From positions 594,542 through 658,541 of the forward strand of contig LEKQ01000001.1 in NCBI GenBank assembly GCA_001443005.1: a DNA stretch of 64,000 nt. The letters run 5' to 3'. A model generated the notes under the pieces. The model did not search any database, was not told the DNA's origin, and saw nothing but the letters and a program-made list of their open reading frames with translations. Shown in pieces: positions 1 to 29,124 of this stretch. Position 1 is the first letter of the stretch, and every line of letters begins with the position of its first letter. The DNA comes from a bacterium GBS-1 (lineage in GTDB: Bacteria; Synergistota; GBS-1). The translations under genes and the position numbers were made by a program.

Positions 1-344
1 CAGCATCTGATAGCTTCTTAATCAAGCGAGTTCCGTTAGTTGTAGTTAAAACAGCGCGCTTTCCCTTTATCATATGAGCGTTCTCCATAACATCGGTAGG
101 AGAGTTATCGAAGTCGAACCCAGGTATCTTAGCCCCTCCCCTCTCCCCCATTAGAAGGATATCGGGGTTTTCCCTCTTTAAGGACTTAGCTTCCCTTATA
201 GAAGATGTGATAAAGAGCGAGTCCCCACCATAAGCGAAGAAAGTAACTATAGTGGATGTGGCTCTTATTACATCCAGAGCTATCCATAGAAAATCCTCCT
301 TAGGCAAGGGCTCTGAGAGAGAAGACAAAAGGTAAACCTTCATA
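1..344 (-). CDS. 2-phosphosulfolactate phosphatase (ComB) family protein, N-terminal part only; C-terminus lies beyond the window start
   Basis: Not in the ORF track because it runs off the window. My own minus-strand translation from the ATG at 344 gives MKVYLLSSLSEPLPKEDFLWIALDVIRATSTIVTFFAYGGDSLFITSS..., with the ComB-type LDVIRATSTI motif. Confidence 0.55.
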
Positions 345-348
345 AAAC

Positions 349-2094
349 TCAACCCCGCTTAAGGATGGCTCCCTGATCAGCCGAAGTGACTGCTTCAGCG
401 TACCGCGCTAAATATCCCCGGGTTACCCTCGGAGCGGGAGGCTTCCAGTTGGCTAGCCTCCTCTTTATCTCCTCTTCGCTCAGATGCAAATCAAGTTTCC
501 TCTCATCGATATTTATAGTTATGAGGTCCCCATCTTGAACGATAGCGATCGGCCCACCTGAAGCTGCCTCAGGAGAGACATGCCCCACACAGGGACCCCT
601 CGTGGATCCAGAAAACCTCCCATCGGTGACTAAAGCCGTGCTATCCCCTAAGCCCATACCGACGAGAACAGACGTAGCGGCAAGCATCTCTCGCATACCC
701 GGTCCCCCCTTAGGTCCCTCATAGCGTATAACGACTACATCTCCCCTCTGAACCTTGCCATCAAGAATGGCTTGAACTGCATTTTCACAGGACTCGAAAA
801 CCTTAGCTGGACCAGTGTGAACCCTCATGGAGGGCGAAACCGCAGTCTGCTTCACAACTGCACCATTGGGAGCCAGACTTCCCCTTAAAATTGCCAAGCT
901 ACCTTCCTCATGAACAGGGTTATCAAGAGAACGAATTACCTCTCTATTACGGTTTTTGGCTTTCTTCAATATATCCCTAAGAGTGCAAAGCATAACGCTC
1001 CTCTCATCTAAATGAAGTAGGGGAGAAAGCTCCTTCATAACAGCAGGAATCCCACCGGCATCATCCAGATCCTTAAGGGTATATGGACCAGAAGGCTTCA
1101 AATCAACCAAGTGCGGCGTAGTCCTACTTACCCTATCGAAGTCATCCAGTGTTATCCTTATGCCTATCTCATGGGCTATAGCGGGGATGTGAAGCAAAGC
1201 GTTGCTTGAACCTCCCACAGCCACAACCACTCGCATGGCATTCTCAAAGGATCTGTCTGTTATTATATCGGAAGGTTTAACACCTCTCTCTATGAGCCTC
1301 ATAACCTGAATCCCCGAAAGCTTGGCTTCCCTAAGCTTTTTAGAATATACAGCGTGAGTTGTCGCACAGCCCGGCAAAGTCAAGCCCAGGCTTTCAGCCA
1401 CACATGACATGGTGTTCGCAGTCCCCATCATGGAACATGAGCCTACAACAGGGCATATGCAATCCTCCATTTCCCTAAACTCCTCTTCTGTCAACAATCC
1501 ACGCCTATAAAGTCCCACAGCCTCCCTTATCTCATAGACAGCTAAGCTTCTACCCTTAAAAACCCCCGGGAGCATCGGTCCACCAGTAACCATGATAGAT
1601 GGAACGTTTATCCTTAACATCGCCATAAGCATACCAGGAACTATCTTATCACAGGCGGCTAAGAAGACCAAGCCATCTAACTGCTCCGCCTGAGCCACGA
1701 GCTCTATGGAATCAGCTATCACCTCTCTACTGGGTAGAACATAACACATTCCCTGATGCCCCTGGGCTATACCATCGCATATGGCGATGGTGTTAAACTC
1801 AAAGGGCACGCCCCCAGCCAACCTTATGCCCTCCTTAACCGCCTCAGCGATCTGGCGAAAATGCTTATGCCCGGGGTGCATCTCATTCCAAGAGTTCACA
1901 ACACCAACGAAAGGACGGTTGAATTCCTCATCGATCAACCCACAAGCTTTAAGAAGGGCACGCATACCAGCCCTATCTATACCCTCCACAACAACTCGAC
2001 TGCGCAATCCCACGGCTTCATTCACCCTCCCTAAAAACAAAGGAATCAGGGCTCCAAGACCGGAATGGTAATCAAGGCATTGGGTACAACCCAA
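349..2094 (-). CDS. IlvD/EDD-family dehydratase (dihydroxy-acid or sugar-acid dehydratase), paralog 1
   Basis: [37 protein letters not shown] and [11 protein letters not shown] motifs. True start is probably near 2025 (GTG), which would remove the overlap with the upstream gene. Confidence 0.85.
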
Positions 2095-3329
2095 ACTTTA
2101 GCATCCTTGCCGAGCTCAAAGAACGCTCGCTCCAGCGCCTCTTCAACAGTAGGCTCGTACTCTAGAAATAGCTCCCTTAAGATAGGCTCTGGAACAGCTG
2201 TCCCAACCATAAAGATCTTAGCCCAGTTTAAGGCCTTAGCCAGAACGAAGGCCTTGTGCTCCCCCGGTTCAAATCCCTCGCGATAAGCCCTCTCTAAAGC
2301 TTCCACAGGTGACCTTACGCTTTTCATCCAGTTATAGTACCCCTCATGCCCTATACCATCCTCACACGCCGCAGGGATTATTATTATCCCCCCCTTTCTG
2401 ACCAAAGGACGAGGTGCAAATATCAGGTTATTAACCGCCCTGGTCGCCTGATATAGGTCCCTGTCCTTAGGATATCTGGGTATCGCTATGATAATATCCC
2501 CCTGCTGACTAGCTTTAACCTCATAAATCTCTTTCGCAAACCTCACGCCCGCATCGTGAGCTTTCACCGGATCACCAGCGAACACCCCAAGAAGGCGCTT
2601 ATCGTCATCGAGCACCACGTTAACTATGAAGTCAAGGCCAAGAAAGCCAGCCGCTTCCTCAAGAAAACGTCTAAAGAGGTTATCCTCGATCACACCCAAT
2701 CTGGTCTTAGGATGATCCAGCATGGCGATATTGTGCGTAGCAGAAATCGTGCGAACGCTTGCAACACCAACTGCAACGCTTTTAACCCCACCGCTGTACC
2801 CCGCAAAGAGGTGAGGTTCAATAACACCTGTCGCGATCCTTAAATCAGCCTCTGCTACGCTTTTATTTATCTCCACAGGTATGCCCTGAGATAGGGTGTT
2901 CCCCAAAAACTTAAGCCCCTCAGGGTTAAAGGCATTATGGTTCTCAACCTTGACTCTCCTTACCACCTCTTCACTATACATCTCCTTGAACTCCTCAATA
3001 GAATTGGGCCTGTGAGTACCAGTAGCAACAACTACACTGATATTCTCATCGGGTATCCCAGCTTCGTTAAGCTCCTTCAACAAAAGGGGAATGACTACCT
3101 CCTCACAAGCATATCTGGTTATATCGGTAGCTATGATGACCACCCTCTGCCCAGGCTTGGCTAAATCTCTTAGGGCTTTGCTCCCGATGGGATTTCTTAA
3201 GGCATCCTCAAAGGCAGAAACCACATCCTTAACCGGTGGGTACCTCTTCGGGTCAAGAACCCCCAAAAAATTCCTCTCAGGGATATTAAGCCTAAGAACA
3301 CTCCCCCTTAGGGGAATCTCGACTATCAA
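2046..3329 (-). CDS. LarA-like (DUF2088) nickel-pincer-dependent 2-hydroxyacid racemase/epimerase family protein
   Basis: 427 aa; overall resemblance to the LarA/DUF2088 family ([18 protein letters not shown] segments). Family assignment from memory of family features. Confidence 0.65.
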
Positions 3330-3358: not shown

Positions 3359-4417
3359 TCACATCCCCACAAGCTTTTTTGCCTCCTCTAAGGCCCTTAA
3401 GGCTCCTTCACCTAATGGTACGCCCTCCTTAAGCCTCTTGCACATGGTCCGATAGCTTCTCTCCCCCGGCAGAAGGATCTCATCCACGCCCTTAGCTCTC
3501 TTAGATCCCTTTATCATCTTTATGTATCCATCCACCTTTTCCTTGAACTCGTCAACCGGCATGAAGCTTTCGACTTTAATAGCCACCATAAAATTACCGA
3601 CGCCCATCGGCTTAGTAAAGTCCAAGAACATGGATTTTATATCTTTACCGTAAGAGGAACCAGTTAAGAGGCCACTTATTATGTCTATCACAATTGACAT
3701 CCCATATCCCTTGGCTCCCCCTAAGGGCAAAAGGGCTCCTTCTAGAGCCTTCTCCGGATCATCCGTGTGGTTTCCTTCATTATCCACAGCCCAACCGAAG
3801 GGGATTTTTTCACCCTTTCTTAAGCTCTCCTCTATCTTCCCTCTGGAAACAACGCTCGTTGACATATCCAAAACGATCGGTATCTCCCTACCTGCTGGTA
3901 TAGCAACTGCAAAGGGGTTCGTCCCTAGTACAGGCTCACAACCACCATGGGGAGCCATTAAAGCAGCTGTGTTAGTTAGAACGATGCCTATCATGTTTTC
4001 TCTCAGGGGCATCATCGCATAGTGACCCGCAATACCGATGTGATTCGTATTTCTAACGCCAGCGATAGCAACATCATTCTCCTTAGCCTTTTCTATACAC
4101 ATGGACATGGCCAGCTTTCCCGCAACCTGGCCAAGGCCATTATCTGCATCGATCAAGATAACGTTTCTTGATTCCCTTATAACCTTTATATTGGGTTTTG
4201 GATTTATAATCCCAAGCCTTATCCTCTTTACATAGGTGGGAAACCTAACTACACCGTGCGATTCTATTCCTCTTAAATCCGCTGCGACTATAGCCTCAGC
4301 TGTGTCAAGCGCATCCTGCTCTGGCACGCTCAAGCGCATCAGTACAGAGGAAAGGATCCCAATTAAATCCTCGTAAGGAACCAAAACCAAGGGAGCGAAA
4401 CCCTCCTTTAGGTTCAC
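3359..4417 (-). CDS. Ldh_2-family (malate/L-lactate dehydrogenase family 2; ComC/AllD-like) 2-hydroxyacid dehydrogenase
   Basis: N-terminal ADLRGIESHGVVRFPTYVKR motif typical of Ldh_2; 352 aa. Confidence 0.75.
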   Translation of the reverse strand: MNLKEGFAPLVLVPYEDLIGILSSVLMRLSVPEQDALDTAEAIVAADLRGIESHGVVRFPTYVKRIRLGIINPKPNIKVIRESRNVILIDADNGLGQVAGKLAMSMCIEKAKENDVAIAGVRNTNHIGIAGHYAMMPLRENMIGIVLTNTAALMAPHGGCEPVLGTNPFAVAIPAGREIPIVLDMSTSVVSRGKIEESLRKGEKIPFGWAVDNEGNHTDDPEKALEGALLPLGGAKGYGMSIVIDIISGLLTGSSYGKDIKSMFLDFTKPMGVGNFMVAIKVESFMPVDEFKEKVDGYIKMIKGSKRAKGVDEILLPGERSYRTMCKRLKEGVPLGEGALRALEEAKKLVGM

Positions 4418-5571
4418 ATCGTCGGACCTATTCTGGTTATCGCGAACTCACCATGACCAAGCTGCTCTGACTTAGTCATCTTTCCATTTATCACAGAAAG
4501 CATTTCCTTTATGATTCTGCGCCCAACCTCTTCAACCGTTTCGATCCCCAGTATTATAGTTCCTGCATTGATATCTATGTTATCGGACATCCTCTCCCAA
4601 GTCTTGGGATTACCAGTAATCTTTATAACCGGAGCAATGGGGCAACCAACGGGTGTTCCCCTTCCCGTGGAAAAGAGAACCAATTGAGCTCCACCTGCCA
4701 CCATGCCGCTCACCGACTGAACATCATGCCCTGGCGTATCCATTATCCACAGCCCTTTGCCCTTAGGCTGCTCCGCATATTCAACCACGCCTTGAATTGG
4801 AGACCTCCCAGCCTTAAGGATGCAACCAAGGGATTTTTCCTCTATCGTCGTTATACCACCTTCAATGTTGCCTCTCGTCGGCTGAGTCCCTCTTAAATCG
4901 ACGCCCATCTTCAAAGCGTCCTCTTCAGCTCTCTTTACGATCTCGTATATACGCTTAGCTACATCTTCGTTAACCGCTCGCTTGGCCAATATGTGCTCCG
5001 CCCCTATAAACTCGGGGGTCTCCGATAATATCGACGTTCCACCCGAGCTAACCACGAAGTCCGAAGCAACTCCCATGGCAGGGTTCGCCGCTATCCCAGA
5101 GGTGGCATCCGAACCACCGCACTCAAGAGCAATCACGATATGGGATAGATCTATGACCTCCCTCACCATCCCAGACAGATCCGAAAGCATGCTCTCAGCT
5201 ATGGCTATCCCCTTATCTATAGCCCTTAAGGTTCCACCTTCTTCCTGAATCACCAGGACCTCGACCTTCTTCCCCGACTCCGATATCCTCTCAGCCAACA
5301 TATAGGGATCGAGCTTCTCGCATCCGAGCCCAACCACCAGAACCGAAGCCACGTTGGGATTCTTACCAACCCCAACAAGGGTCCTCAGGGTTTGCTCATA
5401 GTCAACGCCAAGCTGTCCACATCCCTCATTATGAGTTATAGACACGCTTCCAGGAACACTCTTCGATATGGCTAAGACCACCTCATTGCTACAGACAACG
5501 CTCGAAAGTACAAGAAGGTGGTTTCTAATCCCAACTGAACCATCGGGCCTTATATAACCCCATAGTTTCAT
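4414..5571 (-). CDS. UxaA-family dehydratase large subunit (altronate/galactarate dehydratase C-terminal domain; SuyB-like)
   Basis: 385 aa matching the UxaA/GarD C-terminal region; 4-nt overlap with the upstream small subunit gene. Confidence 0.8.
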   Translation of the reverse strand: MKLWGYIRPDGSVGIRNHLLVLSSVVCSNEVVLAISKSVPGSVSITHNEGCGQLGVDYEQTLRTLVGVGKNPNVASVLVVGLGCEKLDPYMLAERISESGKKVEVLVIQEEGGTLRAIDKGIAIAESMLSDLSGMVREVIDLSHIVIALECGGSDATSGIAANPAMGVASDFVVSSGGTSILSETPEFIGAEHILAKRAVNEDVAKRIYEIVKRAEEDALKMGVDLRGTQPTRGNIEGGITTIEEKSLGCILKAGRSPIQGVVEYAEQPKGKGLWIMDTPGHDVQSVSGMVAGGAQLVLFSTGRGTPVGCPIAPVIKITGNPKTWERMSDNIDINAGTIILGIETVEEVGRRIIKEMLSVINGKMTKSEQLGHGEFAITRIGPTM

Positions 5572-5876
5572 CTCCCACCACCCTCTCCCTTAAGCAAGTC
5601 GCCTCTTCCCCTATTACTCACAACGTTATGAACATGCACCCAATCCCCAACCTCGATATCTCGCGTAGCCCTACCTATAACCTCACCGTACTTTATGACA
5701 TCGCCATCCTTTGGAATCCTCCTAACGGCAAACTTATGGCCAAAGGGTATGTCCGCGATCACCCTTACCTCCCTAGACTGGTTAGAGATTCTCACTAACG
5801 CTATCTCACCAGCTTGAATGTCTTCAAGAGCTGTAGCCACGTTATCTGCCCCATCAAGTAAAAGAGCCCTTTTCAT
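5568..5876 (-). CDS. UxaA-family dehydratase small subunit (SAF domain; SuyA-like)
   Basis: 102 aa; SAF-type segment IPFGHKFAVRRIPKDGDVIKYGEVIGRATRDIEVGDWVHVHN; overlaps the large subunit start. Confidence 0.7.
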   Translation of the reverse strand: MKRALLLDGADNVATALEDIQAGEIALVRISNQSREVRVIADIPFGHKFAVRRIPKDGDVIKYGEVIGRATRDIEVGDWVHVHNVVSNRGRGDLLKGEGGGR

Positions 5877-5891: not shown

Positions 5892-7775
5892 CTATAAAAG
5901 CCAGTCTAACCCTAGCTCGATAAGCTTCCAAGGTTGGGGAACGCCCTCTTCATCCCAACCAGACATAAGGTAATAAATCCTCTTGGCCTCCTCGAACTCC
6001 TCCCTAGTAACGAATCTACCCTCATGGATACCCCCTCGGAGAGGCATGTACATCTTTTCTGCCAATCTATCCTCCTTCGAATCCACTCCACTTCTAACGT
6101 TAAACACCCTCATCATGTTCAGTCTTCTTTCCCCAACCTTCATGAGCTCCCATAGGCTCACTTCCCAACCGGTCACCGCGCTAACGGCTTCGACCACCTC
6201 ACTGTAGTTTAAACCCCTTGTAGGAGCCATGCAAAACATGCATATATCGAGGGAGTTCAACATGCTATAAGCTATCATAGTGTAATAGGCGAACCTAACT
6301 TTTCTACCATCAAGATCGAACCAAGGTAATCTCTCATTGATACCCAAGATAGCTATTCTTTCAAGGTTAACGTCTGGAGCGTCAGGACCTATGCTTGGAT
6401 CATGTTCACTCGCCATGTGATCCGCTCCTATAGGACAAACAGAATAGACCAAAGCAAGGGACCTTTTAACCCTCGGCTCATGAGCGGGATACTCAACCCC
6501 TTTGCATTCAACGGCATACCTCTCCGCGTTTCTCCCTATAGCTTGAGCAGCCCTCCTCGACCCTTCAGCCAGAAGTCTCCCTATACCCTCTTTCTTAACT
6601 ATCTTCTCAATAAGGGGTATTACCACATCCTTGTTACCAAACCTCAACTCAAGCCCATCGGTCTCTTCCTCAGTTAATATTCCGTTCTCATAGCAATCCA
6701 TTGCAAAAGCTATAGTTCCTCCCAGGGATATAGTGTCTATGGTGTACTTATTGCAGAGCTCTATAGCCTTAGAGACGATATAGGGGTCATCCACCCCTAT
6801 GTAGGAACCTAAAGCAGCCATAGATTCATACTCCAGGCTGGTGTACTCTTGATCTATCTCAAATGGTTCTCTCGCTCCAACCAACCTCTTACATCTTACA
6901 GGACAAGCATAACACCCGGTCTTTTTCACATCCATTATGGTCTCTATGAAGTCACCTGCAATCTTATCCACACCATCAAATACCCCGCTTCTCCAGTTAA
7001 AGGTGGGTAGCTGCCCACCTGTGCTGAAGAGCTTGGTGGTTATGGTTGTCCCCCACTGGTGCAATCTAAGCTGACCTGGGTAGCTCTTAAACCTGGAAGC
7101 AAAATCCTTGGCTATCTTTACCAACTTACCTTCATCCTTAAACTGGGGTTTTCTCGTCCCCTTAACCACAATAGCCTTCAGCTTTTTAGAACCCATAACT
7201 GCTCCAAGTCCGCATCTACCATGCATATCATGAATATCACAAGCTATGCTTGCAAACCTAACGAGGTTCTCCCCACCTGGGCCTATTCCAAGAATCCTCA
7301 AGCCCCTTTCTCCTAACTCTTTCTCAACCTCTCTAAGAACATCTGCGTTGTGCTTCCCCCAAAGATGCGAAGCATCTTTGATCTCCACATTTCCATCCTT
7401 AACCCAAAGATAAACGGGTTTTGAAGCCCTTCCTTTAACCACTATCGCGTCCAATCCCGCAGACTTTAAGGCCACACCCCAAAATCCACCGGCCTCGCTA
7501 TCAGCTATACCACCGGTCAACGGAGAGACTGAAACAGCCGAATGCCTTGCGAACCCCGGTAAGGGAGCACCCGTCACCACGCTGGGAGCGAAAACTATCA
7601 CGTTCTCAGGAGAATAGGCATCCGTTCCAGGTTTAACGTACTTCAATACATAATAACTTCCAAGACATCCCCCACCTATATATTTCCTGAAAAAGGCCTC
7701 TCCCGGACTCTCATATTCAACCGCCATATTAGAGAGATCCACATGGGCTATCCTATCCCAAAAGCCATATCCCAC
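5892..7775 (-). CDS. aor: Aldehyde:ferredoxin oxidoreductase (tungsten-containing AOR family)
   Basis: 627 aa; AOR N-domain plus Fe-S/pterin-binding region (KPVYLWVKDG..., GPGGENLVRFASIACD, CYACPVRC). Confidence 0.9.
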   Translation of the reverse strand: MGYGFWDRIAHVDLSNMAVEYESPGEAFFRKYIGGGCLGSYYVLKYVKPGTDAYSPENVIVFAPSVVTGAPLPGFARHSAVSVSPLTGGIADSEAGGFWGVALKSAGLDAIVVKGRASKPVYLWVKDGNVEIKDASHLWGKHNADVLREVEKELGERGLRILGIGPGGENLVRFASIACDIHDMHGRCGLGAVMGSKKLKAIVVKGTRKPQFKDEGKLVKIAKDFASRFKSYPGQLRLHQWGTTITTKLFSTGGQLPTFNWRSGVFDGVDKIAGDFIETIMDVKKTGCYACPVRCKRLVGAREPFEIDQEYTSLEYESMAALGSYIGVDDPYIVSKAIELCNKYTIDTISLGGTIAFAMDCYENGILTEEETDGLELRFGNKDVVIPLIEKIVKKEGIGRLLAEGSRRAAQAIGRNAERYAVECKGVEYPAHEPRVKRSLALVYSVCPIGADHMASEHDPSIGPDAPDVNLERIAILGINERLPWFDLDGRKVRFAYYTMIAYSMLNSLDICMFCMAPTRGLNYSEVVEAVSAVTGWEVSLWELMKVGERRLNMMRVFNVRSGVDSKEDRLAEKMYMPLRGGIHEGRFVTREEFEEAKRIYYLMSGWDEEGVPQPWKLIELGLDWLL

Positions 7776-20276: not shown

Positions 20277-20300
20277 CTCGATCCCTCCTCAAAGCAGAAC

Positions 20301-20783: not shown

Positions 20784-20813
20784 CCTGAACTAAATCGCCT
20801 CCCCCTTAAAACA

Positions 20814-20845
20814 GTGCATGGCAGGAGGAAGAACCTGCCATGCAC
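20814..20845 (-). promoter_or_regulatory. Intercistronic stem-loop between tctC and tctB (copy 1): perfect 12-bp inverted repeat, 8-nt loop
   Basis: GTGCATGGCAGG-aggaagaa-CCTGCCATGCAC read directly from the sequence; no downstream U-tract. Confidence 0.5.
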
Positions 20846-20869
20846 CCATCTCTATCTAAGGGTCCAAAC

Positions 20870-21877: not shown

Positions 21878-21901
21878 CTTTCTTCCCCCCTTTAGATTAA
21901 T

Positions 21902-21919
21902 TTCTTAAAGCTTTAAGAA
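21902..21919. promoter_or_regulatory. Perfect 18-bp palindrome TTCTTAAAGCTTTAAGAA just upstream of the tctC (copy 1) Shine-Dalgarno; candidate operator
   Basis: Read directly; near-identical palindrome lies in the same position upstream of tctC copy 2. Confidence 0.4.
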
Positions 21920-21954
21920 CCTCTTCCTTTTCACATCACCTCCCTCTACGGCTT

Positions 21955-23109
21955 TTACATGGCAGATCTGCATATCTGGATCAGATCTTCCAAGGTAGGA
22001 GTTCTCGGATTAATGGGTATCCCAACGTTACTCATCGCCTCACGACATATATCTTCAATGGCATCCTCTTTGACGCCTACCTCTCTTAGCCCTGCCGGTA
22101 TACCCACATCTCTACACAAAGCCTTTACCGCCTCAACCGCCCTACGTGCAGCCTGAAGCTCCGTAAGACCGGAAACGCTCTCTCCCAACGCTTCAGCTAT
22201 CTTAGCAAACTTAGAAAGGTTGCCAATGAGATTAAACTCCATACCATAGGGTAATAGGATAGCGTTTATCACACCATGAGGCACGTCGAAGTACCCACCC
22301 ATAACAGCTGTGATAGCGTGAATAACGCCCAAGCGCGTATTTGCGAAAGCCAAGGCTGCCATCGTGCTTCCTAAGAGCATGTTATAGCGAGCTTCAATAT
22401 TATCCCCCTTAGCATAGGCAGCCCTCAGATACTTTCCAATAAGATAGATAGCGTGATAGGCAAGCGACTCCGATATAGGCTCAGTTACAACGTTCGTGAA
22501 GGACTCTATAGCGTGAGTTAGAGCATCTAAACCAGTAGCAGCGGTCACGCTTGGCGGCATACTCAAGGTTAGAAGGGGGTCGCAAACCGCAATGTGAGGA
22601 GCGATCTTAGGATTACCTATGCCCATCTTAACTTTCTTCTTGGTATCCTTTATCACCGTCACCCAAGTTATCTCGCTACCTGTGCCAGCCGTAGTAGGAA
22701 CGGCAATGAGAGGAAGTATCCTGTTCTTCGGAGGGTTCTTCCAAAAGTAGGCTATCTCCCCCTCGTTAGTTAAAAGTAGACCGATCGCCTTAGCGGTGTC
22801 TATCGAGCTTCCTCCCCCAATCGCCAATAGGAGATCACACCCAAACTCCCGAGCAACTTTAACTCCCTCCTCGACTATCTCAACCGTCGGATTAGGCTCA
22901 ACTTTAGAGAAAACCTCAGTTCTAAAGCCAGCAATATCCAACTTGGCCTTTATGCCATTTACGATGTTCGTGCACATCAATCCCGGATCCGTAACTATTA
23001 AGACGCTCTTTCCGCCCAGTTCGTTAACCCTGTCTACTATTTTTTCGGCCTCTCCTATCCCAAAATACAACTTAGTCGGAATCTGCCAAACGAAGGGCTT
23101 AACAAACAT
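21955..23109 (-). CDS. Iron-containing alcohol dehydrogenase (Fe-ADH family)
   Basis: 384 aa; GGGSSIDTAKAIG motif and Fe-ADH layout. Confidence 0.85.
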   Translation of the reverse strand: MFVKPFVWQIPTKLYFGIGEAEKIVDRVNELGGKSVLIVTDPGLMCTNIVNGIKAKLDIAGFRTEVFSKVEPNPTVEIVEEGVKVAREFGCDLLLAIGGGSSIDTAKAIGLLLTNEGEIAYFWKNPPKNRILPLIAVPTTAGTGSEITWVTVIKDTKKKVKMGIGNPKIAPHIAVCDPLLTLSMPPSVTAATGLDALTHAIESFTNVVTEPISESLAYHAIYLIGKYLRAAYAKGDNIEARYNMLLGSTMAALAFANTRLGVIHAITAVMGGYFDVPHGVINAILLPYGMEFNLIGNLSKFAKIAEALGESVSGLTELQAARRAVEAVKALCRDVGIPAGLREVGVKEDAIEDICREAMSNVGIPINPRTPTLEDLIQICRSAM

Positions 23110-23325
23110 GCTATCCCCCCTCTATACTTTATTATTGTGATAATATCATCCATCCAAACAAATCTATCCTTATCCGCCAACGGAACAACATTCGCTATTT
23201 CTAAATGATATCTTAACATAAGCACCCGACAGCGTCAAGCCATGTTCGTATACCCAGTATGCTTGGATTAATGGTAATACCTCAACTATTTCGCATATAG
23301 GAGAATCTTTTAGATTCTCTCTATC

Positions 23326-24795
23326 TTAGTCCTTTAATTTACGCACCACCTTCCAAATAGATGGTCCTAAAAGGGTTAAAACTATAAGAGAAAACAAGAT
23401 TAAAGATATGGGACGGGTTAGGAAAGGGATAATGCTACCACCTGACTTTATAAGCCCTATACGGAGATTGTCCTCGATCATCCTACCAAGGATTAGAGCT
23501 AAAACCATTGGAGCAAGAGGCATGTTTATTTTCTCCATAACGTAGCCGAGTAAGCCAAACAGCGCCATTAGCCATATATCGAAGACGCTGTTTCTTATGG
23601 CGTAGGAGCCTACCATGGAAAACAGAACCACAGCACTCATAACTACACCTGCTCTAAGGCTAACCAAGCGAGAAAAGGCCTTTATCCCCAGCCACCCAAC
23701 CGGTAAAAGCATTATCTGCACCAGCAGGGCTACAGCGAAAATCTGATATACCAAATCCTTAGATTGAGCGAAGATGAGCGGTCCAGGCTTCAAGCCATAC
23801 ATCAGCATAGCGCCTAGGACTATCGCAGTTATAGAATCGCCAGGTATCCCCAGTGCCAGTGCAGGGATCCAAGTTCCACCTATAGCAGCATTATTCGCAC
23901 TGGTTGGAGCTATAACGCCACGGGGGCTACCGGAACCTATCTCATTACCACTAAGGCTTTTTTCCGCTCCATAGGCAACCCATGCAGCGATGTCCGCCCC
24001 CGCTCCAGGAAGAGCACCTATGAAAGTCCCTATCAAAGAGCTCCTTATTATAATGAACTTATTGCGATACATAAGCTTTAAAGCCTCAAGCACATCCAAC
24101 TTCCCATTGATTTTAACGCTTGGTAAGTCCAAGCTCTCCCTAAAGGACAATCTCTTCAATACCTCGGAAATTCCAAAAAGTCCTATCATAGCTGGGATAA
24201 AGCTAACACCATCCATCAGCTCCGTGATCCCAAAGGTAAACCTGGGATATCCCGTGGTGACATCTATACCTATGGTAGATATGAGAAGCCCAAACAAGGC
24301 TGAAAGAAGCCCCTTGATGGTATTACCTCTACTTAAAACGGCAGCCATGCTTAAACCAAAGACCCCCAACCAGAAATACTCGAAGTGCGTGAACTTCAAG
24401 GCTACCTCAGCTAACGGGGGAGCAGTGAAGATCAATATCAAAACCCCTATCAATCCTCCAAGAGCAGAACAGAAGAGATCCAAAGTTAAGGCTAAAGCTC
24501 CTTTACCCTTCTTATTCATCTCAAAGCCATCTAAAACCGCTGCCCCAGAGGCTGGCGTACCCGGAATCCTTAAGAAGGTCGCGGGAATATCGCCTGCAAA
24601 TATGGCGGTGAAGGAAACACCTATAACCATAGCCAAACCCGTTAGGGGCTCCATGTAATAGGTCAATGGTATTATGAGAGCTACGGCCATCGTAGCCGTA
24701 AGGCCAGGCATAGCGCCCACGAAAACGCCAAAGGCCATTGAAAGCAAAAGCGGAAAAAGAACCTTTAAGGAAAGGATGGATAAAAGATAAGACAT
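23326..24795 (-). CDS. tctA: Tripartite tricarboxylate transporter large permease TctA (copy 2)
   Basis: 489 aa; GAMPGLTATMAVALI motif; paralog of copy 1. Confidence 0.85.
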   Translation of the reverse strand: MSYLLSILSLKVLFPLLLSMAFGVFVGAMPGLTATMAVALIIPLTYYMEPLTGLAMVIGVSFTAIFAGDIPATFLRIPGTPASGAAVLDGFEMNKKGKGALALTLDLFCSALGGLIGVLILIFTAPPLAEVALKFTHFEYFWLGVFGLSMAAVLSRGNTIKGLLSALFGLLISTIGIDVTTGYPRFTFGITELMDGVSFIPAMIGLFGISEVLKRLSFRESLDLPSVKINGKLDVLEALKLMYRNKFIIIRSSLIGTFIGALPGAGADIAAWVAYGAEKSLSGNEIGSGSPRGVIAPTSANNAAIGGTWIPALALGIPGDSITAIVLGAMLMYGLKPGPLIFAQSKDLVYQIFAVALLVQIMLLPVGWLGIKAFSRLVSLRAGVVMSAVVLFSMVGSYAIRNSVFDIWLMALFGLLGYVMEKINMPLAPMVLALILGRMIEDNLRIGLIKSGGSIIPFLTRPISLILFSLIVLTLLGPSIWKVVRKLKD

Positions 24796-24802
24796 CTACA
24801 CT

Positions 24803-25294
24803 CTACCCCCTTAAGAGTGAAAATATAACTCCCTCAGGTAAGGGTAGCTTAAATATAACCTTGAAAATCCAATGGATTAACAAAGCCAAGACTACAGAAT
24901 AAACTAGAGATGAAAACCACCTAACTCTCATAAATCGCATTAGGAAAACTCCCAAGAGCGTTATACCAATCACGCTTCCGAAAATCTTCAGAACCGGGTA
25001 AAAGAGAAACCCCACACCTATGATAATTACGAAGCTCAAGCTTTTATATAAGCTGACGCCTTTAAATAGCGATGATCTCAATTCCTCCCTCGCTTTAAAT
25101 AGAGAGGTCAAACCAGATACAAAAAAGTAAAAACCAAAGATCAAGATCAAAAAAGCTAAGAGATCCGGGAAAAAGCTCGGTCCAGGCAACTTTTCCCCTC
25201 TTACCGTAAACTTCGGGAAAAACCTGGAATGGTAAAAAACGAAGCCTGATAAAGCGAAACAGCTCAAACTCAATATAAGGTCACTCCACCCCAT
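24803..25294 (-). CDS. tctB: Tripartite tricarboxylate transporter small subunit TctB (copy 2)
   Basis: 163 aa hydrophobic protein in the tctCBA position. Confidence 0.6.
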   Translation of the reverse strand: MGWSDLILSLSCFALSGFVFYHSRFFPKFTVRGEKLPGPSFFPDLLAFLILIFGFYFFVSGLTSLFKAREELRSSLFKGVSLYKSLSFVIIIGVGFLFYPVLKIFGSVIGITLLGVFLMRFMRVRWFSSLVYSVVLALLIHWIFKVIFKLPLPEGVIFSLLRG

Positions 25295-25320
25295 TTAGCC
25301 ACAATCCCCCTTTAAAGGCG

Positions 25321-25350
25321 GGGCAAGCTCGTGGGAACGAGCTTGCCCCA
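25321..25350 (-). promoter_or_regulatory. Intercistronic stem-loop between tctC and tctB (copy 2): perfect 12-bp inverted repeat, 6-nt loop
   Basis: GGGGCAAGCTCG-tgggaa-CGAGCTTGCCCC; same position and architecture as copy 1. Confidence 0.5.
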
Positions 25351-25362
25351 AAGAGAATACCT

Positions 25363-26337
25363 TTACTTCTTAAGATATCCGCCTAGCTCGAGAACCGTCT
25401 TCCAAGCTTTATCCTGCTCCTCAACGAATTTCCTGAACTCCTCTCCCCTTCTTACCTTTATACCAAAGCCATTGGTTTCCATGAACTTCTTGAAAGCTTC
25501 AGAGTTAGCTATCTCAATAATGGCATCCTCGAGCTTCTTCTTTATCTCAGCAGGGGTTCCTTTAGGAACACCCACACCCCTCCACGTACCAGCGCTCCAG
25601 TTAATACCGAGCTCCTTTAAGGTCGGTACATCTGGGAATGCAGGAAGCCTCTCATCGGCCATAACAGCGAGAGCTCGAGCCTGACCGCTCTTTATATAAG
25701 GAGCGGCTTCCGCCAACGAACAGGTAACCACGTGGACATGCCCACCTAAAAGCTCGGTCAAAGCTTGAGCAGCGCCCGTGGTAGACGGAATCCACTTAAC
25801 GGAATCCACAGGCAAACCAGCAGCGTGAAGCATACCTATCCTAGCTAAATCCCATATCCCACCCGCTGCGACGCCGGAGAAAAGAAGCTTACCTGGATTA
25901 GCCTTTATATCGTCCAGTAGCTCCTTGAGATTCTTCCATGGGGCATCGGCCTTGACCGTTACTCCTGCAGCATCCTCGTTAACCTGAGCTATATAGTCGA
26001 AAGCCTCATAGGTTAGGTCCGTGAGGCCCATCCAGTGCATTGTGGCTAACTCCAATGTCACGATGGTTATGGTGTATCCGTCTGGGGGTGCATAAGCACC
26101 AGCGGCGTGCCCCACCGCTCCACCGCCACCCGTTTTGTTAACCACAGTGAAGGGCTGACCAAACTTCTTAGAAAGCTCATCTGCCAAAAATCGAGCAAGC
26201 CTGTCGGTGCCCCCACCAGCACCCCAAGGACAGATAACCGTAACCGCCTTCTCTGGATAGGCCGCCCACGCGCTTAAGGTAAAGACCCACGTAAACCCCA
26301 TAACCGCCAAAACTACCACCCATAAAAGCTTCTTCAT
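25363..26337 (-). CDS. tctC: Tripartite tricarboxylate transporter substrate-binding protein TctC (Bug family; copy 2)
   Basis: Signal peptide followed by AAYPEKAVTVICPWGAGGGTD Bug-family motif. Confidence 0.85.
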   Translation of the reverse strand: MKKLLWVVVLAVMGFTWVFTLSAWAAYPEKAVTVICPWGAGGGTDRLARFLADELSKKFGQPFTVVNKTGGGGAVGHAAGAYAPPDGYTITIVTLELATMHWMGLTDLTYEAFDYIAQVNEDAAGVTVKADAPWKNLKELLDDIKANPGKLLFSGVAAGGIWDLARIGMLHAAGLPVDSVKWIPSTTGAAQALTELLGGHVHVVTCSLAEAAPYIKSGQARALAVMADERLPAFPDVPTLKELGINWSAGTWRGVGVPKGTPAEIKKKLEDAIIEIANSEAFKKFMETNGFGIKVRRGEEFRKFVEEQDKAWKTVLELGGYLKK

Positions 26338-26350
26338 TTTGAAACCCCCT

Positions 26351-26366
26351 TTCTTAAATTTAAGAA
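26351..26366. promoter_or_regulatory. Perfect 16-bp palindrome TTCTTAAATTTAAGAA abutting the tctC (copy 2) Shine-Dalgarno; candidate operator
   Basis: Read directly; shares the TTCTTAAA / TTTAAGAA half-sites with 21902-21919. Confidence 0.4.
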
Positions 26367-26523
26367 GCTTTGCTTAAAAAGCAAATATTACCAGTTTCAC
26401 CTCCTTCCTTATGTTAAACTCTCTGTTTAAAGTATAGCAAAAGAAGAACCATCTTTCGAGATCTCCAAAACCTTTTCGGGAAAAGATGTGCTGAAAAAAT
26501 CTCTTAAATTTTTTAGTCTATTC

Positions 26524-26997
26524 TTAAAAGCACCTTTTTCTGAGATTAAACCTTCTTAAAATGGGCAGAAACATGCCTCCAACGAGAGCTAACGCCCCAA
26601 GAGCGCCGGGCCTGGAGGAGATTTCACAACCGCCGCACCACCAGTCAAAGTCAACCCTTATGCTACGAGGCCCCCACCATGTAGAATGACCGTATTCATC
26701 CTCAACCTTAACGCATACATCGTACCACCCCTCGTACCACACCCTATACCATAGAGTGTCGCTCCACTCCACCTCAACGCCATTCACATACCATGTATAG
26801 TAAATGTAATCACCATCAGGATCATAGGCTTCAACGCGCCCCTTTATGATCGCATATTCATCACACCAATCGTATTCGTAATAATCCACATCCAACCAAA
26901 CGTTCGTTATTATAGGAGGCGAGTTCTGCCCCAAAGCATATCCAGATATACATAAGAGCAAGACAAGGGAAACAAGCGATATCTTAAGCCCCTTCAA
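26524..26997 (-). CDS. Small secreted W/Y-rich PKD-like domain protein with a C-terminal hydrophobic/basic tail
   Basis: N-terminal signal peptide (MKGLKISLVSLVLLLCISGYALG); DPDGDYIYYTWYVNG PKD-like core; tail CGGCEISSRPGALGALALVGGMFLPILRRFNLRKRCF; 4-nt overlap with upstream gene. Confidence 0.5.
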   Translation of the reverse strand: MKGLKISLVSLVLLLCISGYALGQNSPPIITNVWLDVDYYEYDWCDEYAIIKGRVEAYDPDGDYIYYTWYVNGVEVEWSDTLWYRVWYEGWYDVCVKVEDEYGHSTWWGPRSIRVDFDWWCGGCEISSRPGALGALALVGGMFLPILRRFNLRKRCF

Positions 26998-28232
26998 ATG
27001 AAACTTCCTCCCTTAGCGCGTTCCATCAAATCAAGGAGAACTTCAACCACCTTTTGAGCAAACTCAGGATCATTTATGTTGTTATCGAGCTCGTAAACTG
27101 GTATCCCAGGTCTAAGATTAGCCTTTATCGAATCGAAGCAAGCCCTATCAGCCTCAGGATCCCAGAAGGCTTGACCAGGACTGTCAAGCATGGAAACACC
27201 CTTTAGCGGTATAAGCACGGCCACCGGCCCCTTGCTTTCGTTCGCCGCCCTAGCTATCCACTCCCCTATGGCTTTGTTTTCTTCAACGTTCGTCCTAACC
27301 AAGGTGACATTAGGATTCCACTCGTATATCTTTCTGCCCCTATACTTCTCCGGAACCGTATCTTTCGCCCAGAAATTGATCATATCGACACAACCCGGAA
27401 CTAAAACGGCAGGGATACCTCTTCTTGCAGCAGCAAAGAGCCTATCCTTCCCCGCCGATAGAACCCCTCCACCTATCTCATCAGCTAACTCCGTAGTCGT
27501 TATATCAGCCACAGCTGAAACCAAGCCCTGATCAATGAGCATCTCCATGGTTCTCCCACCGGTCCCAGTAGCGTGAAACACCAGTATCTCAAAGCGATCG
27601 CCCAAAAGCTCTTTAACCTTCTCGACGCACGGTGTCGTGTTCCCAAACATGCTTATAACTATAACTGGCTTCTCAGGCTCCTTAAGCATCTCCTCATAGG
27701 CACCATGCTCAAGCATCCCCGCGAGCGCCCCCACGGCGTTCTTATAAATCGCCCTGCTAATCCTATTTAAGCCAGCCACATCAACTATTGAGGGAAACAT
27801 CACTATATCCTTAATCCCAACATATCGAGATACATCTCCACCAGCAACCGTAGACACCATCACCTTAGGAATACCTATGGGCAAAGCTTGCATGGCCGTT
27901 GTGGCTATTATGGTCCCAGCGCTTCCTCCCATACCAAGTATGCCATGAAGATTCCCTTCATCATATAACCTCCTAACTACCTCCTTAAGCCCCTTGGTCA
28001 TCGTATCCATCGCTAAGCTCTTATCCTTTTTCGCCTGGAGCTCCTCTATGCTCACTCCCCCCGCCTTTGCCACCTCTGCCCTCGTTATATCTGGTTCGAA
28101 GAAGGGCTTCCCCATCACACCAAAATCAACCACAATAACCTCAAAACCAGAGCTCTTGAGCAGATCCCTAACGTAGGCAAAATCCTGCCCTTTGGTATCT
28201 AAGGCACCGACTAAAACAACCTTCTTAGTCAT
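26994..28232 (-). CDS. Tm-1-like / UPF0261-family protein
   Basis: 412 aa; N-terminal MTKKVVLVGALDTKG and overall resemblance to UPF0261; recognised from memory of the family. Confidence 0.6.
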   Translation of the reverse strand: MTKKVVLVGALDTKGQDFAYVRDLLKSSGFEVIVVDFGVMGKPFFEPDITRAEVAKAGGVSIEELQAKKDKSLAMDTMTKGLKEVVRRLYDEGNLHGILGMGGSAGTIIATTAMQALPIGIPKVMVSTVAGGDVSRYVGIKDIVMFPSIVDVAGLNRISRAIYKNAVGALAGMLEHGAYEEMLKEPEKPVIVISMFGNTTPCVEKVKELLGDRFEILVFHATGTGGRTMEMLIDQGLVSAVADITTTELADEIGGGVLSAGKDRLFAAARRGIPAVLVPGCVDMINFWAKDTVPEKYRGRKIYEWNPNVTLVRTNVEENKAIGEWIARAANESKGPVAVLIPLKGVSMLDSPGQAFWDPEADRACFDSIKANLRPGIPVYELDNNINDPEFAQKVVEVLLDLMERAKGGSFI

Positions 28233-28247
28233 ACTATCCTCCCTCCC

Positions 28248-29087
28248 CTAACGAGCAAGCCTCAGCGACTTAAAGGCCTCAACCTGCGCTTTTATCGCCC
28301 TCTCTGTAGGCAGGCGCTCGATGCTTGAAGCGCCAAAGAACCCCACGACACCAGGCATCATCGCAAGAGCCTTACCCACATTCTCAGGCTCATCGAAAGG
28401 CCCTCCATGGCATATCACCAGTATATCCTTTCTAACTCTCTTAGCAGCTTCAGCGATAGACATCACCTTCTCAACGGCTTGCTCCAAGGTCATGGCCACA
28501 CCAGCTCCTATCGTACCACCGGTAGTTAAACCAACATGAGCAACGATAACATCAGCACCAGCCTTAACCATCTCAACGGCCTGGTCCTCATCAAACACAT
28601 AGGGTGTGGTAAACATATCAAGCTCATGAGCTATCCTTATCATCTCGATCTCCTTATCATACCCCATACCTGTGGCCTCAAGGTTAGCCCTGAAGTTACC
28701 GTCAATTAGACCAACAGTTGGGAAGTTCTGAACGCCGGAGAAACCCATTTCCTTAAGCTCCCTTAAGAAAACGGGCATAAGCCTAAAGGGATCTGTGCCG
28801 CAAACGCCAGCCAAAACAGGGGTGTTTTTCACAACCGGCAAGACCTCCCTCGCCATCTCAACAACTATAGCGTTAGCATCACCATAGGGCATAAGACCCG
28901 CTAGGGAACCTCTCCCACCCATCCTGAATCGACCAGAATTATAGATAACTATCAGATCTATTCCACCAGCCTCAGCCATCTTCGCGGATATCCCTGTTCC
29001 AGCTCCACCACCCACTATGGGCCTTCCAGCCTCGATCTGAGCGTGAAGGCGAGCTAATATTTCTTCCCTCGTAAAACCGATCTTCAT
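28248..29087 (-). CDS. PEP hydrolase-like TIM-barrel protein (usual partner of UPF0261)
   Basis: About 280 aa; start set to the ATG (MKIGF...) preceded by GGAGGTG; track ORF extends to a GTG at 29096. Confidence 0.6.
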
Positions 29088-29124
29088 TAGCAACACCTCC
29101 CTTAAAAAAATCTTTTCTGACTAT

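Follow-up and report, generated by a model that had tools for sequence, protein, structure and literature searches.

A conserved gene block with ferredoxin-linked oxidoreductases in the GBS-1 lineage of Synergistota and its candidate role in acid-sugar catabolism

Gene clusters for the catabolism of sugar acids are known in several forms, including the Entner-Doudoroff (ED), De Ley-Doudoroff and GntII hexonate operons of E. coli (edd-eda, dgoRKADT and idnDOTR-idnK) and the Weimberg and aldarate clusters of A. brasilense (araABCDE), B. subtilis (ycb/gud-gar), Priestia (pNCT2_4) and Pseudosulfitobacter (P4). Here we analyse a locus with features of both, which lies at the start of a 64,000-nt stretch of DNA (the window) from the bacterium GBS-1 (GTDB lineage Bacteria; Synergistota; GBS-1; GenBank assembly GCA_001443005.1, contig LEKQ01000001.1, positions 594,542 to 658,541 of the forward strand). 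An earlier sequence-only reading had described the first 29 kb of the window as a single catabolic island for sugar acids or sulfonates. Our comparison with other genomes indicates that the locus very likely consists of a conserved block of about 23 kb (approximately 349-23240) made of three re-assorting modules, with a separate upstream unit and a downstream flank that is not conserved. We propose, with confidence that stands at about the midpoint, that this block catabolises acid sugars imported by a tripartite tricarboxylate transporter (TTT), using dehydratase, kinase and aldolase chemistry together with ferredoxin-linked oxidation of aldehydes and 2-oxoacids.

The block resembles the E. 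coli hexonate operons in combining a transporter, a keto-aldonate reductase, a C6 kinase, a dehydratase and a pyruvate-releasing aldolase, and its kinase-aldolase-dehydratase order is that of dgoK-dgoA-dgoD; a distant relative of the block, on contig L093, even uses a true Eda-family aldolase. In contrast, the parts themselves are all non-orthologous to those of E. coli, with a TTT system instead of an MFS carrier, an FGGY kinase, an IlvD/EDD protein resembling dihydroxy-acid dehydratase (DHAD) instead of Edd or the enolase-type DgoD, and an aldolase of the DHDPS/NAL type. An aldehyde:ferredoxin oxidoreductase (AOR), an iron-containing alcohol dehydrogenase (Fe-ADH) and a D-isomer-specific 2-hydroxyacid dehydrogenase (2-HADH) are conserved additions. 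The branched ED pathway of thermophilic archaea such as Sulfolobus and Thermoproteus pairs a DHDPS/NAL-family aldolase for 2-keto-3-deoxy-(6-phospho)gluconate (KD(P)G) with a ferredoxin- or cofactor-dependent aldehyde oxidoreductase, as does the block. Unlike the archaeal systems, however, the block is found in a bacterium and contains an IlvD/EDD rather than an enolase-type dehydratase and an FGGY rather than a PfkB kinase, and its aldolase-type protein scores only 150 bits against the archaeal 2-keto-3-deoxygluconate aldolase model (cutoff 390).

The Weimberg and aldarate clusters share with the block IlvD/EDD and UxaA/GarD dehydratases, a DHDPS-family enzyme, a 2-HADH adjoining the aldehyde oxidiser and a LarA-type epimerase beside the UxaA-type dehydratase. 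The block differs in that an NAD(P)-dependent ketoglutarate semialdehyde (KGSA) dehydrogenase is missing, as are dehydratases of the FAH and KdgD types; AOR is found instead, and a 2-oxoacid:ferredoxin oxidoreductase (OFOR, or KOR for the 2-oxoglutarate type) and succinyl-CoA synthetase (SCS) are appended. Its DapA-like protein also keeps the aldolase Tyr, unlike L-2-keto-3-deoxypentonate (L-KDP) dehydratase. The SlcC-ComC-SuyAB sulfolactate clusters of Chromohalobacter, Paracoccus and Roseovarius share with the block four contiguous enzyme families and the presence of TTT transporters, but the block retains a four-cysteine site, lacks a gene for sulfite export or reduction and carries LarA, AOR, KOR and SCS in addition. 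The ferredoxin-linked 2-oxoacid and AOR enzymes of Pyrococcus resemble their counterparts here (449 bits for KorA to a 2-keto acid:ferredoxin oxidoreductase alpha subunit and 368 bits for AOR, both from P. furiosus), but the block genes lie inside a transporter/dehydratase/aldolase operon, and their partner is SCS where Pyrococcus has ADP-forming acyl-CoA synthetases.

Conserved gene order and the extent of the block

A program-made list of open reading frames (ORFs), combined with Pfam and NCBIfam scans, gave 28 ORFs on the minus strand between 349 and 29096, so that the co-directional array with short gaps and overlaps described by the sequence-only reading is real. The profile scans of the window proteins also recovered every enzyme family it had named: two TctCBA systems, two IlvD/EDD proteins, a split UxaA, a DHDPS-family protein, an FGGY kinase, a short-chain dehydrogenase/reductase (SDR), Fe-ADH, D-2-HADH, a LarA-like protein, Ldh_2, AOR, a four-subunit OFOR, and SCS beta and alpha. 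Four ORFs were absent from its list, namely a PEP-hydrolase-like gene, a UPF0261 gene, a 157-aa secreted-looking ORF and a 72-aa ThiS-like ORF. In the remaining 35 kb of the window, which has housekeeping content (CoaE, PcrA/UvrD, GlnA, DnaG, RpoD, H+-PPase, PPDK, GlyQS, Era, RecO and PhoH), nearly all genes likewise lie on the minus strand, and GC skew is negative across the entire window. Since the minus-strand bias is a background property of this genome, strand is not evidence for a functional unit, and the support that is not attributable to chance is gene order conserved in other genomes.

Such conservation was assessed over the whole block with two Logan assemblies (L007 and L014) and a Synergistota metagenome-assembled genome (MAG; L015, GCA_025060595.1), all from related uncultured thermophiles; the nearest named relatives are Synergistota and Bacillota MAGs. 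Proteins identical to those of the window occur on contigs from samples that are probably sediment, water and cellulolytic enrichments of Great Boiling Spring at 77 C. Jointly, the three contigs share the order Fe-ADH, TctCBA#2, SDR, FGGY, DapA-like, IlvD/EDD#2, ThiS-like, ferredoxin-dependent KOR, SCS, 2-HADH, AOR, split UxaA, Ldh_2, LarA, IlvD#1, with Fe-ADH reached only in L015 and the genes after AOR up to IlvD#1 shown only in L007. Amino acid identities are 67-94% for most genes and 53-62% for the short ThiS-like protein and TctB. At the downstream end, IlvD#1 has an 81% identical orthologue at the same position in L007, where the genes that follow are unrelated and ComB is absent, which places ComB outside the conserved block. 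The ComB-like phosphatase gene (PF04029) had been recognised correctly, but it is cut by the window start: its N-terminal 114 codons occupy 343-2 of the window, and the full gene encodes 245 aa on the source contigs. At the upstream end, the L015 genes preceding Fe-ADH are unrelated and include neither a PEP-hydrolase-like gene nor TctCBA#1, indicating that 23326-29096 is a separate unit. The claim of one 29-kb catabolic island can thus be kept, as an anaerobic ferredoxin-linked island for acidic carbon, for 349-23240, the rest of the 29 kb being separate.

Conservation in L015 is uneven. Fe-ADH, TctC2 and TctA2 are 87%, 94% and 90% identical there (L015 4945-9259, corresponding to window 18795-23109), compared with 54-82% for the rest of the block, which suggests that the uptake end is under stronger constraint or has been exchanged more recently. 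In L093, the identities of these three proteins are 76%, 60% and 74%, respectively.

From Fe-ADH onward, intergenic distances range from -49 to 86 nt, and 349-23240 is probably co-transcribed as a super-operon. The sole larger gaps measure 186 nt (between the 157-aa ORF and TctC1) and 216 nt (between TctA1 and Fe-ADH). A promoter-like site occurs in each of them and a third upstream of the first gene of the array; the site in the 216-nt gap, TTGACG-17-TAAGAT (23210-23238, minus strand), is a consensus match only and marks the proposed start of the block. Counts of promoters and terminators are at or below shuffled expectation, and what is suggestive is only where the three promoter-like sites lie, namely in the three largest gaps. 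Scans of the entire window for Rfam families and tRNAs gave no match, with no riboswitch or molybdenum cofactor RNA in the gaps. Beyond the window start, on the source contigs, IlvD#1 is followed on the same strand by the ComB-like gene, a PF04463/DUF1722 gene and a photolyase gene (L001 15229-18199); the first two intervals measure 5 and 9 nt, and the third is an overlap of 8 nt. The tight spacing therefore runs on into functionally unrelated genes, and operon calls based on spacing alone are too generous in this genome.

Three modules can be told apart in more distant genomes, where the block is split up: M1, comprising TTT, SDR, FGGY, aldolase and IlvD/EDD; M2, comprising AOR and the ferredoxin-dependent KOR, SCS and 2-HADH; and M3, comprising split UxaA, Ldh_2, LarA and IlvD. 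L093 carries orthologues of TctCBA#2, SDR, FGGY, IlvD/EDD#2, Fe-ADH and AOR at 60-76% identity (38% for TctB), and has no DapA-like gene between FGGY and IlvD/EDD; an Eda-family aldolase (PF01081) is encoded upstream of its transporter. In L095, behind an SSF transporter, AOR is directly followed by KOR, SCS and 2-HADH orthologues at 56-72% identity, the 2-HADH orthologue (61%) coming after KOR and SCS. Pseudothermotoga thermarum has an FGGY orthologue (57%) in a 2HADH-TRAP-SDR-FGGY arrangement, in which the SDR is only 32% identical, and split-UxaA homologues of about 60% identity occur alone or, in C. hydrogenoformans, with KdgT, a DUF1537 kinase and PdxA. We discounted L010 as a second linkage of AOR with KOR and SCS, as the KOR and SCS there are distant paralogues (36-48%). 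The sequence-only reading had held that its island would fall if the array broke into independently conserved units, and in part it does so, as the modules are separate in distant genomes, yet two of them share AOR and 2-HADH. The finding that AOR and a 2-HADH accompany both the sugar-acid module (L093) and the KOR-SCS module (L095) indicates that these modules are linked.

Enzyme families and a proposed ferredoxin-linked acid-sugar route

All window genes described in this section lie on the minus strand. The block begins with Fe-ADH (21955-23109), whose best models, choline dehydrogenase and lactaldehyde reductase, both fall below cutoff. It is followed by the block's own transporter, TctC/TctB/TctA #2 (18795-21877), which was assigned by profile scan, and by a classical SDR (18044-18802), which comes closest to the gluconate 5-dehydrogenase model (250 bits, below the cutoff of 279). 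The FGGY carbohydrate kinase (16499-18028) is gluconokinase-like: at 389 bits it remains below the cutoff of the gluconokinase model TIGR01314 (648), yet that is its best FGGY model, and its best solved relative is a gluconate kinase. The DHDPS/NAL-family class I aldolase-type (DapA-like) protein (15589-16479) precedes IlvD/EDD #2 (13897-15552), a DHAD-like paralogue that falls just below the TIGR00110 cutoff (581 against 618 bits), is 46% identical to IlvD#1 and has orthologues at 66-77% identity in L007, L014, L015 and L093. Neither IlvD protein reaches the 708-bit cutoff of the Edd model TIGR01196 (279 bits for IlvD#1 and 313 for IlvD/EDD#2). We propose that IlvD/EDD#2 is a sugar-acid dehydratase.

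The DapA-like protein retains the Schiff-base lysine and the Tyr-Thr-Tyr relay of its family (Lys161, Tyr133, Tyr107 and Thr44 in E. coli DapA numbering), and its GxxG motif reads GTYGCG. In E. coli DapA, Arg138 binds aspartate-semialdehyde. The window protein has Thr at this position and scores 150.7 bits against the DHDPS model TIGR00674 (cutoff 206), so that it does not qualify as DHDPS proper. Two further candidate assignments were rejected, namely KdgD-type 5-dehydro-4-deoxyglucarate dehydratase (TIGR03249, 77.7 bits against a cutoff of 374) and an AraD-type L-KDP dehydratase, as the equivalent of Tyr133 is retained. In L-KDP dehydratase this residue is replaced by Gln (PMC9795676), and a Pseudosulfitobacter DapA-family protein encoded beside AraD also has Gln there. 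The motif GTYGCGP, where the family has GTTGE or GSTGE (Glu to Cys, followed by Gly-Pro), is invariant in L014 and L015. Archaeal KD(P)G aldolases have the motif GTTGLGP, to which GTYGCGP bears an apparent likeness. Homologues of 43-55% identity are found beside FGGY and 2HADH genes (L034, L039 and L040) and beside DgoK and an RraA-like gene in a gut contig (L027), and another is part of the L023 gene series SDR, 2HADH, aldolase, AOR family, sugar-binding protein. We propose that the DapA-like protein is a 2-keto-3-deoxy-(phospho)acid aldolase: in L093, Eda displaces it non-orthologously, pointing to a KD(P)G-type aldolase role, and together with FGGY and IlvD/EDD#2 this suggests a kinase/dehydratase/aldolase trio of the ED or De Ley-Doudoroff type in the gene order dgoK-dgoA-dgoD.

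The second module contains the candidate energy-conserving enzymes. A ThiS/MoaD-like sulfur-carrier protein of 72 aa ending in GG (13603-13821; profile scans) is encoded directly upstream of the OFOR delta subunit, a position kept in L007, L014 and L015, and may serve as a sulfur carrier for the pterin cofactor of AOR. Another ThiS gene (L011 12970-13239) is found near a 55% AOR homologue. The four-subunit OFOR (delta, alpha, beta, gamma; 10871-13597, with a delta subunit of 75 aa) is of the 2-oxoglutarate type by best matches. Its alpha subunit passes the generic 2-oxoacid model NF006412 (563 against 411 bits) and scores 449 bits to the P. furiosus 2-keto acid:ferredoxin oxidoreductase alpha subunit and 295 bits to a 2-oxoglutarate synthase. 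The best models for beta, gamma and delta are all of the 2-oxoglutarate type, with beta at 325 bits against the KOR beta cutoff of 364 and gamma at 221 against 235. The SCS-like beta and alpha genes (8840-10893) follow; alpha passes TIGR01019 (378 against 353 bits), whereas beta is just below cutoff (342 against 376 and 358 against 370). The most economical reading of the KOR and SCS sequences is a conversion of 2-oxoglutarate via succinyl-CoA to succinate and ATP. The module is completed by a D-isomer-specific 2-HADH resembling phosphoglycerate dehydrogenase and glyoxylate reductase (7811-8827; profile scans) and by AOR (5892-7775).

AOR is covered over its full length by AFOR_N and AFOR_C and belongs to the AOR clade: it scores 368 bits to P. 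furiosus AOR, and its closest solved relative is AOR rather than FOR or GAPOR. Membership of the GAPOR group was discarded, as the GAPOR model gave only a partial match of 45 bits, although a GAPOR-type function is conceivable. Orthologues of at least 60% identity occur only in a few uncultured relatives. Candidate substrates would be glyceraldehyde in a non-phosphorylative branch, a uronate, or 2-oxoglutarate semialdehyde in an aldarate branch, and the adjacency of AOR with KOR and SCS is best explained if the substrate is 2-oxoglutarate semialdehyde. More remote AOR homologues (52-55%) are found with Fe-ADH and methylcitrate-cycle genes in L012 and with SSF transporters, a heteromeric FAD dehydrogenase, SDRs, ThiS and 2-HADH in L011. 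In L012 (10001-18558), the 52% homologue is followed by Fe-ADH, a methylisocitrate lyase-like protein, aconitase, PrpF and PrpD and preceded by a sigma-54 PrpR-type regulator and a TAXI-TRAP transporter, which suggests that oxidation of an alcohol via the aldehyde to the acid feeds into propionate metabolism. In L011 (4052-7363 and 10001-11905), the 55% homologue lies beside two SSF transporters, a LarA homologue and an FAD/Fe-S dehydrogenase (Fer2_4, Pyr_redox_2, Fer4, SO_alpha_A3/Fer2_BFD and DAO), which can be likened to heteromeric D-hydroxyproline and opine dehydrogenases and could provide another route to 2-oxoglutarate semialdehyde.

The third module begins with a split UxaA/GarD-family dehydratase (4414-5876), in which a SAF small subunit of 102 aa (5568-5876) overlaps a GD_AH large subunit of 385 aa (4414-5571) by 4 nt. 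An Ldh_2-family L-2-hydroxyacid dehydrogenase resembling archaeal MdhII and ComC (3359-4417; profile scans) and a LarA-family nickel-pincer 2-hydroxyacid racemase/epimerase (2046-3329) follow. The malate racemase (MAR) group of LarA proteins has catalytic His108 and His174, with H/Q and K at the positions of LarA1 W358 and T359 (PMC11770544). The Lys binds a second carboxylate; malate racemases also epimerise tartrate, and a related LarA group epimerises arabinarate. Both catalytic His residues are present in the window protein, which has malate-racemase-type residues, L/F/H/K, at the four specificity positions (H/K within GEHKA), although it remains below the cutoff of the NCBIfam MAR models (401 against 500 bits). 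From this signature, dicarboxylic substrates of the aldarate type seem likely for the downstream module, in agreement with TTT uptake. Conservation of the block ends with IlvD #1 (349-2094, with a likely start near 2013), which matches the dihydroxy-acid dehydratase equivalog TIGR00110 at 775 bits against a cutoff of 618.

Relatives of this module occur with sugar-acid genes elsewhere. Among plasmid homologues of the split UxaA, the closest (55%) is in Priestia pNCT2_4, in the order IclR, FAH, GucD (KGSA dehydrogenase), FAH, DapA family, UxaA small subunit, UxaA large subunit, MFS. A Pseudosulfitobacter plasmid encodes UxaA-LarA-LarC, AraD (IlvD/EDD)-DapA family and ALDH (NADP)-2HADH, a set that is the NAD(P)-dependent counterpart of the window enzymes, with ALDH-2HADH there paralleling 2HADH-AOR here. 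The order TctB-TctA-IlvD-split UxaA-LarA-like in L090 (IlvD 52% identical to IlvD#1, UxaA 50%) indicates that placement of an IlvD-type beside a UxaA-type dehydratase is recurrent, and the role of IlvD#1 may go beyond biosynthesis, despite its score above the ilvD cutoff. The LarA-like proteins encoded in L090 and in Pseudosulfitobacter fall in another subgroup of LarA, and the recurring feature is an epimerase-plus-dehydratase logic rather than one orthologue.

Together, the observed family assignments, catalytic-residue patterns, gene order, conservation and modular re-assortment form the basis of the proposed route. TTT #2 would import acidic sugars as anions, such as aldonates, keto-aldonates or uronates, and aldarates. 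Fe-ADH, SDR, 2-HADH and Ldh_2, with the LarA epimerase, would interconvert stereoisomers and keto forms, and three iron-dependent dehydratases (IlvD/EDD#2, IlvD#1 and the split UxaA/GarD enzyme) would yield 2-keto-3-deoxy acids. The FGGY kinase and the DapA-type class I aldolase could then finish an ED-type route to pyruvate and a (phospho)aldehyde. AOR would oxidise the free aldehyde of the pathway with ferredoxin, in place of an NAD(P)-dependent aldehyde dehydrogenase, and the four-subunit 2-oxoglutarate-type OFOR with SCS would convert the resulting 2-oxo-dicarboxylate to succinate and ATP. The substrates, the redox direction of each step and the aldehyde used by AOR are the inferred parts of this scheme.

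Two more specific versions of this scheme are put forward tentatively. It is possible, though rather doubtful, that AOR replaces KGSA dehydrogenase in a Weimberg or aldarate route ending in succinate and ATP. An equally tentative version is a fully ferredoxin-linked chain, in which an acid sugar would pass through a 2-keto-3-deoxy acid, the semialdehyde, 2-oxoglutarate and succinyl-CoA to succinate and ATP, with a non-orthologous ED-type branch in addition. The Weimberg or aldarate route with AOR, KOR and SCS was the better of the two pathways suggested by the sequence-only reading, given that AOR is next to KOR-SCS in L095, that UxaA homologues adjoin KGSA dehydrogenase in Priestia and that the equivalent NAD(P)-dependent set occurs on a proteobacterial plasmid; it was incomplete in that the DapA-like protein is of the aldolase type and that the ED-type branch had not been proposed.

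Alternative readings of the locus

Several findings weigh against the acid-sugar route. Only IlvD#1 passes a substrate-specific curated cutoff, and it does so as the biosynthetic dihydroxy-acid dehydratase; the block contains no regulator, lactonase, sugar dehydrogenase or uronate isomerase that would pin down the substrate. An Eda-type or phosphorylative route gives glyceraldehyde-3-phosphate, without an obvious free aldehyde for AOR, and the dissimilarity of the DapA-like protein to KdgD (77 against 374 bits) means that the KGSA-forming step is missing. Fermentation of amino acids or 2-oxoacids would by itself account for KOR, SCS and AOR, the gene surroundings of UxaA homologues of 60% identity, in C. 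hydrogenoformans and elsewhere, are quite unlike those here, and the genomes with the whole block are close relatives, so that synteny could be partly inherited rather than selected. The original observation is weakened because co-directionality is the background state of this genome and because the array is more than one unit.

The main rival explanation is that the block is a mosaic, in which an ED-type hexonate operon lies beside fermentation genes (KOR and SCS for 2-oxoglutarate), IlvD#1 serves branched-chain amino acid synthesis and UxaA-Ldh_2-LarA form a separate hydroxy-dicarboxylate unit; AOR would oxidise aldehydes derived from 2-oxoacids, as proposed for Pyrococcus, and adjacency would result from a compact, strand-biased genome and shared ancestry. 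The occurrence of the modules apart from one another in L093, L095, L010, C. hydrogenoformans and P. thermarum is consistent with this view, as are the score of IlvD#1 above the ilvD equivalog cutoff, the continuation of the tight array into unrelated genes such as photolyase, the window-wide minus-strand bias and the close relationship of the whole-block relatives (67-94% identity). However, AOR and 2-HADH travel with both M1 (L093) and M2 (L095), IlvD-type, UxaA-type, LarA-type and TTT genes recur together in unrelated lineages, and gaps of at most 86 nt and several overlaps extend across module borders. We consider the mosaic clearly less probable than the acid-sugar route. A narrower alternative assigns only the downstream half to catabolism of C4/C5 hydroxy-dicarboxylates (tartrate, malate or 2-hydroxyglutarate) and makes the upstream half a separate hexonate route: the UxaA-type enzyme would dehydrate a tartrate-like acid, LarA with Ldh_2 or 2-HADH would handle D- and L-malate or 2-hydroxyglutarate, and KOR with SCS would oxidise the 2-oxo-dicarboxylate. 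The malate-racemase signature of LarA fits this alternative, characterised malate racemases epimerising tartrate too; the nearest relatives of Ldh_2 are archaeal malate dehydrogenase and ComC, KOR and SCS both act on dicarboxylates, and TTT transporters are dicarboxylate/tricarboxylate carriers. We nevertheless regard it as improbable, as AOR would be left without a role, UxaA homologues adjoin KGSA and sugar-acid genes, and we know of no tartrate dehydratase in the UxaA family.

The least probable of the alternatives, in our view quite unlikely, is sulfonate catabolism, which the sequence-only reading had raised. In this case TTT would import sulfogluconate, dihydroxypropanesulfonate or sulfolactate, IlvD/EDD and the aldolase would carry out a sulfo-ED route, and AOR would oxidise sulfolactaldehyde; sulfolactate would be racemised by LarA or by 2-HADH and Ldh_2, and either desulfonated by a SuyAB-like enzyme or converted via sulfopyruvate, with KOR-like and SCS-like enzymes, to sulfoacetate and ATP. 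The sulfolactate set given in the supplement of 10.1101/2023.08.01.551581 comprises SlcC (PF00389/PF02826), ComC (PF02615), SuyA and SuyB (PF20629/PF04295). All four families are contiguous here, with the 2-HADH of the SlcC family and the Ldh_2 of the ComC family both co-located with the split UxaA, and the TTT uptake matches that of a sulfolactate-type cluster on a Variovorax plasmid (GntR-2HADH-UxaA small-UxaA large-TctC-Ldh_2), so the sulfonate idea was a reasonable one. The best NCBIfam match of Ldh_2 is L-sulfolactate dehydrogenase, a ComB-like gene follows the block, and the Lys of a malate-racemase-type LarA could conceivably bind a sulfonate group. On the other hand, four Cys residues are conserved across UxaA/GarD enzymes except SuyAB, and heteromeric members are not confined to SuyAB, a heteromeric L-fuconate dehydratase having been reported (PMC6336799), so that the small and large subunits of the window enzyme, a SuyAB feature, are non-exclusive. 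No bona fide SuyB was available by name, as PLSDB annotates all matches as UxaA/altronate dehydratase, and the published Cys criterion and the Variovorax enzyme, identified by context, served as the reference by proxy. By alignment, the window enzyme retains all four residues (C129, C153, C186 and C253 of the concatenated subunits). They are likewise present in E. coli UxaA and GarD, the split enzymes of Priestia and Carboxydothermus and the fused Pseudosulfitobacter enzyme, whereas the SuyB-like Variovorax enzyme lacks three of the four. The criterion thus behaves as published and places the window enzyme on the dehydratase side. In addition, Ldh_2 reaches only 329 of the 500 bits required for sulfolactate dehydrogenase and is just as similar to Pyrococcus malate dehydrogenase, L007 has no ComB gene after IlvD#1, the conserved gluconokinase-like FGGY kinase would have no substrate in a 6-sulfo pathway, and no sulfoquinovosidase, mutarotase or lactonase is present. 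Profile scans detected neither a sulfite exporter (TauE/SafE-type) nor a sulfite reductase in the window or a 10-kb flank, and genes for sulfite export or reduction would be expected in this alternative. Among the papers searched, none dealt with sulfolactate together with lactate racemase, none linked AOR with SuyAB/sulfolactate or with KGSA, and those returned for a Thermotoga FGGY gluconate kinase (TM0443) were unrelated. As a caution for annotation, clusters of split UxaA, Ldh_2 and 2-HADH should not be taken as sulfolactate pathways without a check of the four cysteines.

If the logic of the acid-sugar route is correct, strictly anaerobic thermophiles would oxidise plant-derived acid sugars of the glucuronate, gluconate or aldarate type via ferredoxin rather than NAD(P), and the use of ferredoxin would raise the hydrogen yield and the ATP gained from substrate-level phosphorylation. 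If AOR were the KGSA oxidiser, the block would represent an undescribed anaerobic, thermophilic counterpart of the Weimberg and aldarate pathways. Physiological roles would also be gained for several enzyme groups that are poorly understood: a clade of bacterial AOR enzymes, an IlvD/EDD paralogue resembling DHAD, UxaA/GarD dehydratases in split form, a LarA of the malate-racemase type encoded beside dehydratases for sugar acids, and TTT systems in anaerobes. The block is in addition a source of heat-stable candidate enzymes for sugar-acid biocatalysis.

The upstream unit and neighbouring genes

The separate unit upstream of the block (23326-29096, minus strand) consists of the PEP-hydrolase-like gene, the UPF0261 gene, the 157-aa ORF and TctCBA#1. 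Its first gene encodes a PEP-hydrolase-like TIM-barrel protein (28248-29096; PF09370, 429 bits) and is preceded by the best promoter-like site of the region (29154-29125, 11 of 12 matches). The next gene encodes a UPF0261 protein of the MarK/Tm-1 ATP-binding kinase family (26994-28232; profile scans), a family in which the sole reported catalytic activity is that of a kinase, the aromatic kinase MarK (PMC12624787). The PEP-hydrolase-like and UPF0261 domains, which are side by side here and beside a TTT transporter, are fused in plant Tm-1.

The 157-aa ORF (26524-26997), which overlaps the UPF0261 stop codon by 4 nt, has no family match. It combines a signal peptide, a middle part rich in W, Y and D, and a hydrophobic C-terminal tail that is rich in Gly and Ala and precedes basic residues (PGALGALALVGGMFLPILRRFNLRKRCF), an arrangement that resembles a C-terminal sorting or anchor signal, and its product is probably secreted or anchored, judging from these features. 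TctC/TctB/TctA #1 (23326-26337) forms a unit of its own between the 186-nt and 216-nt gaps and is 30-42% identical to TTT #2.

No transcription regulator was found anywhere in window 1-37 kb. The few plus-strand genes cluster at 29163-36370, among them the gene of an EamA transporter, which diverges from the array, and that of a TAXI-TRAP transporter (33393-36370) adjoining a CN-hydrolase. Further along, at 45653-52154, a membrane H+-pyrophosphatase is encoded near PPDK and its regulatory kinase/pyrophosphorylase, consistent with a pyrophosphate-based energy economy in this thermophile.

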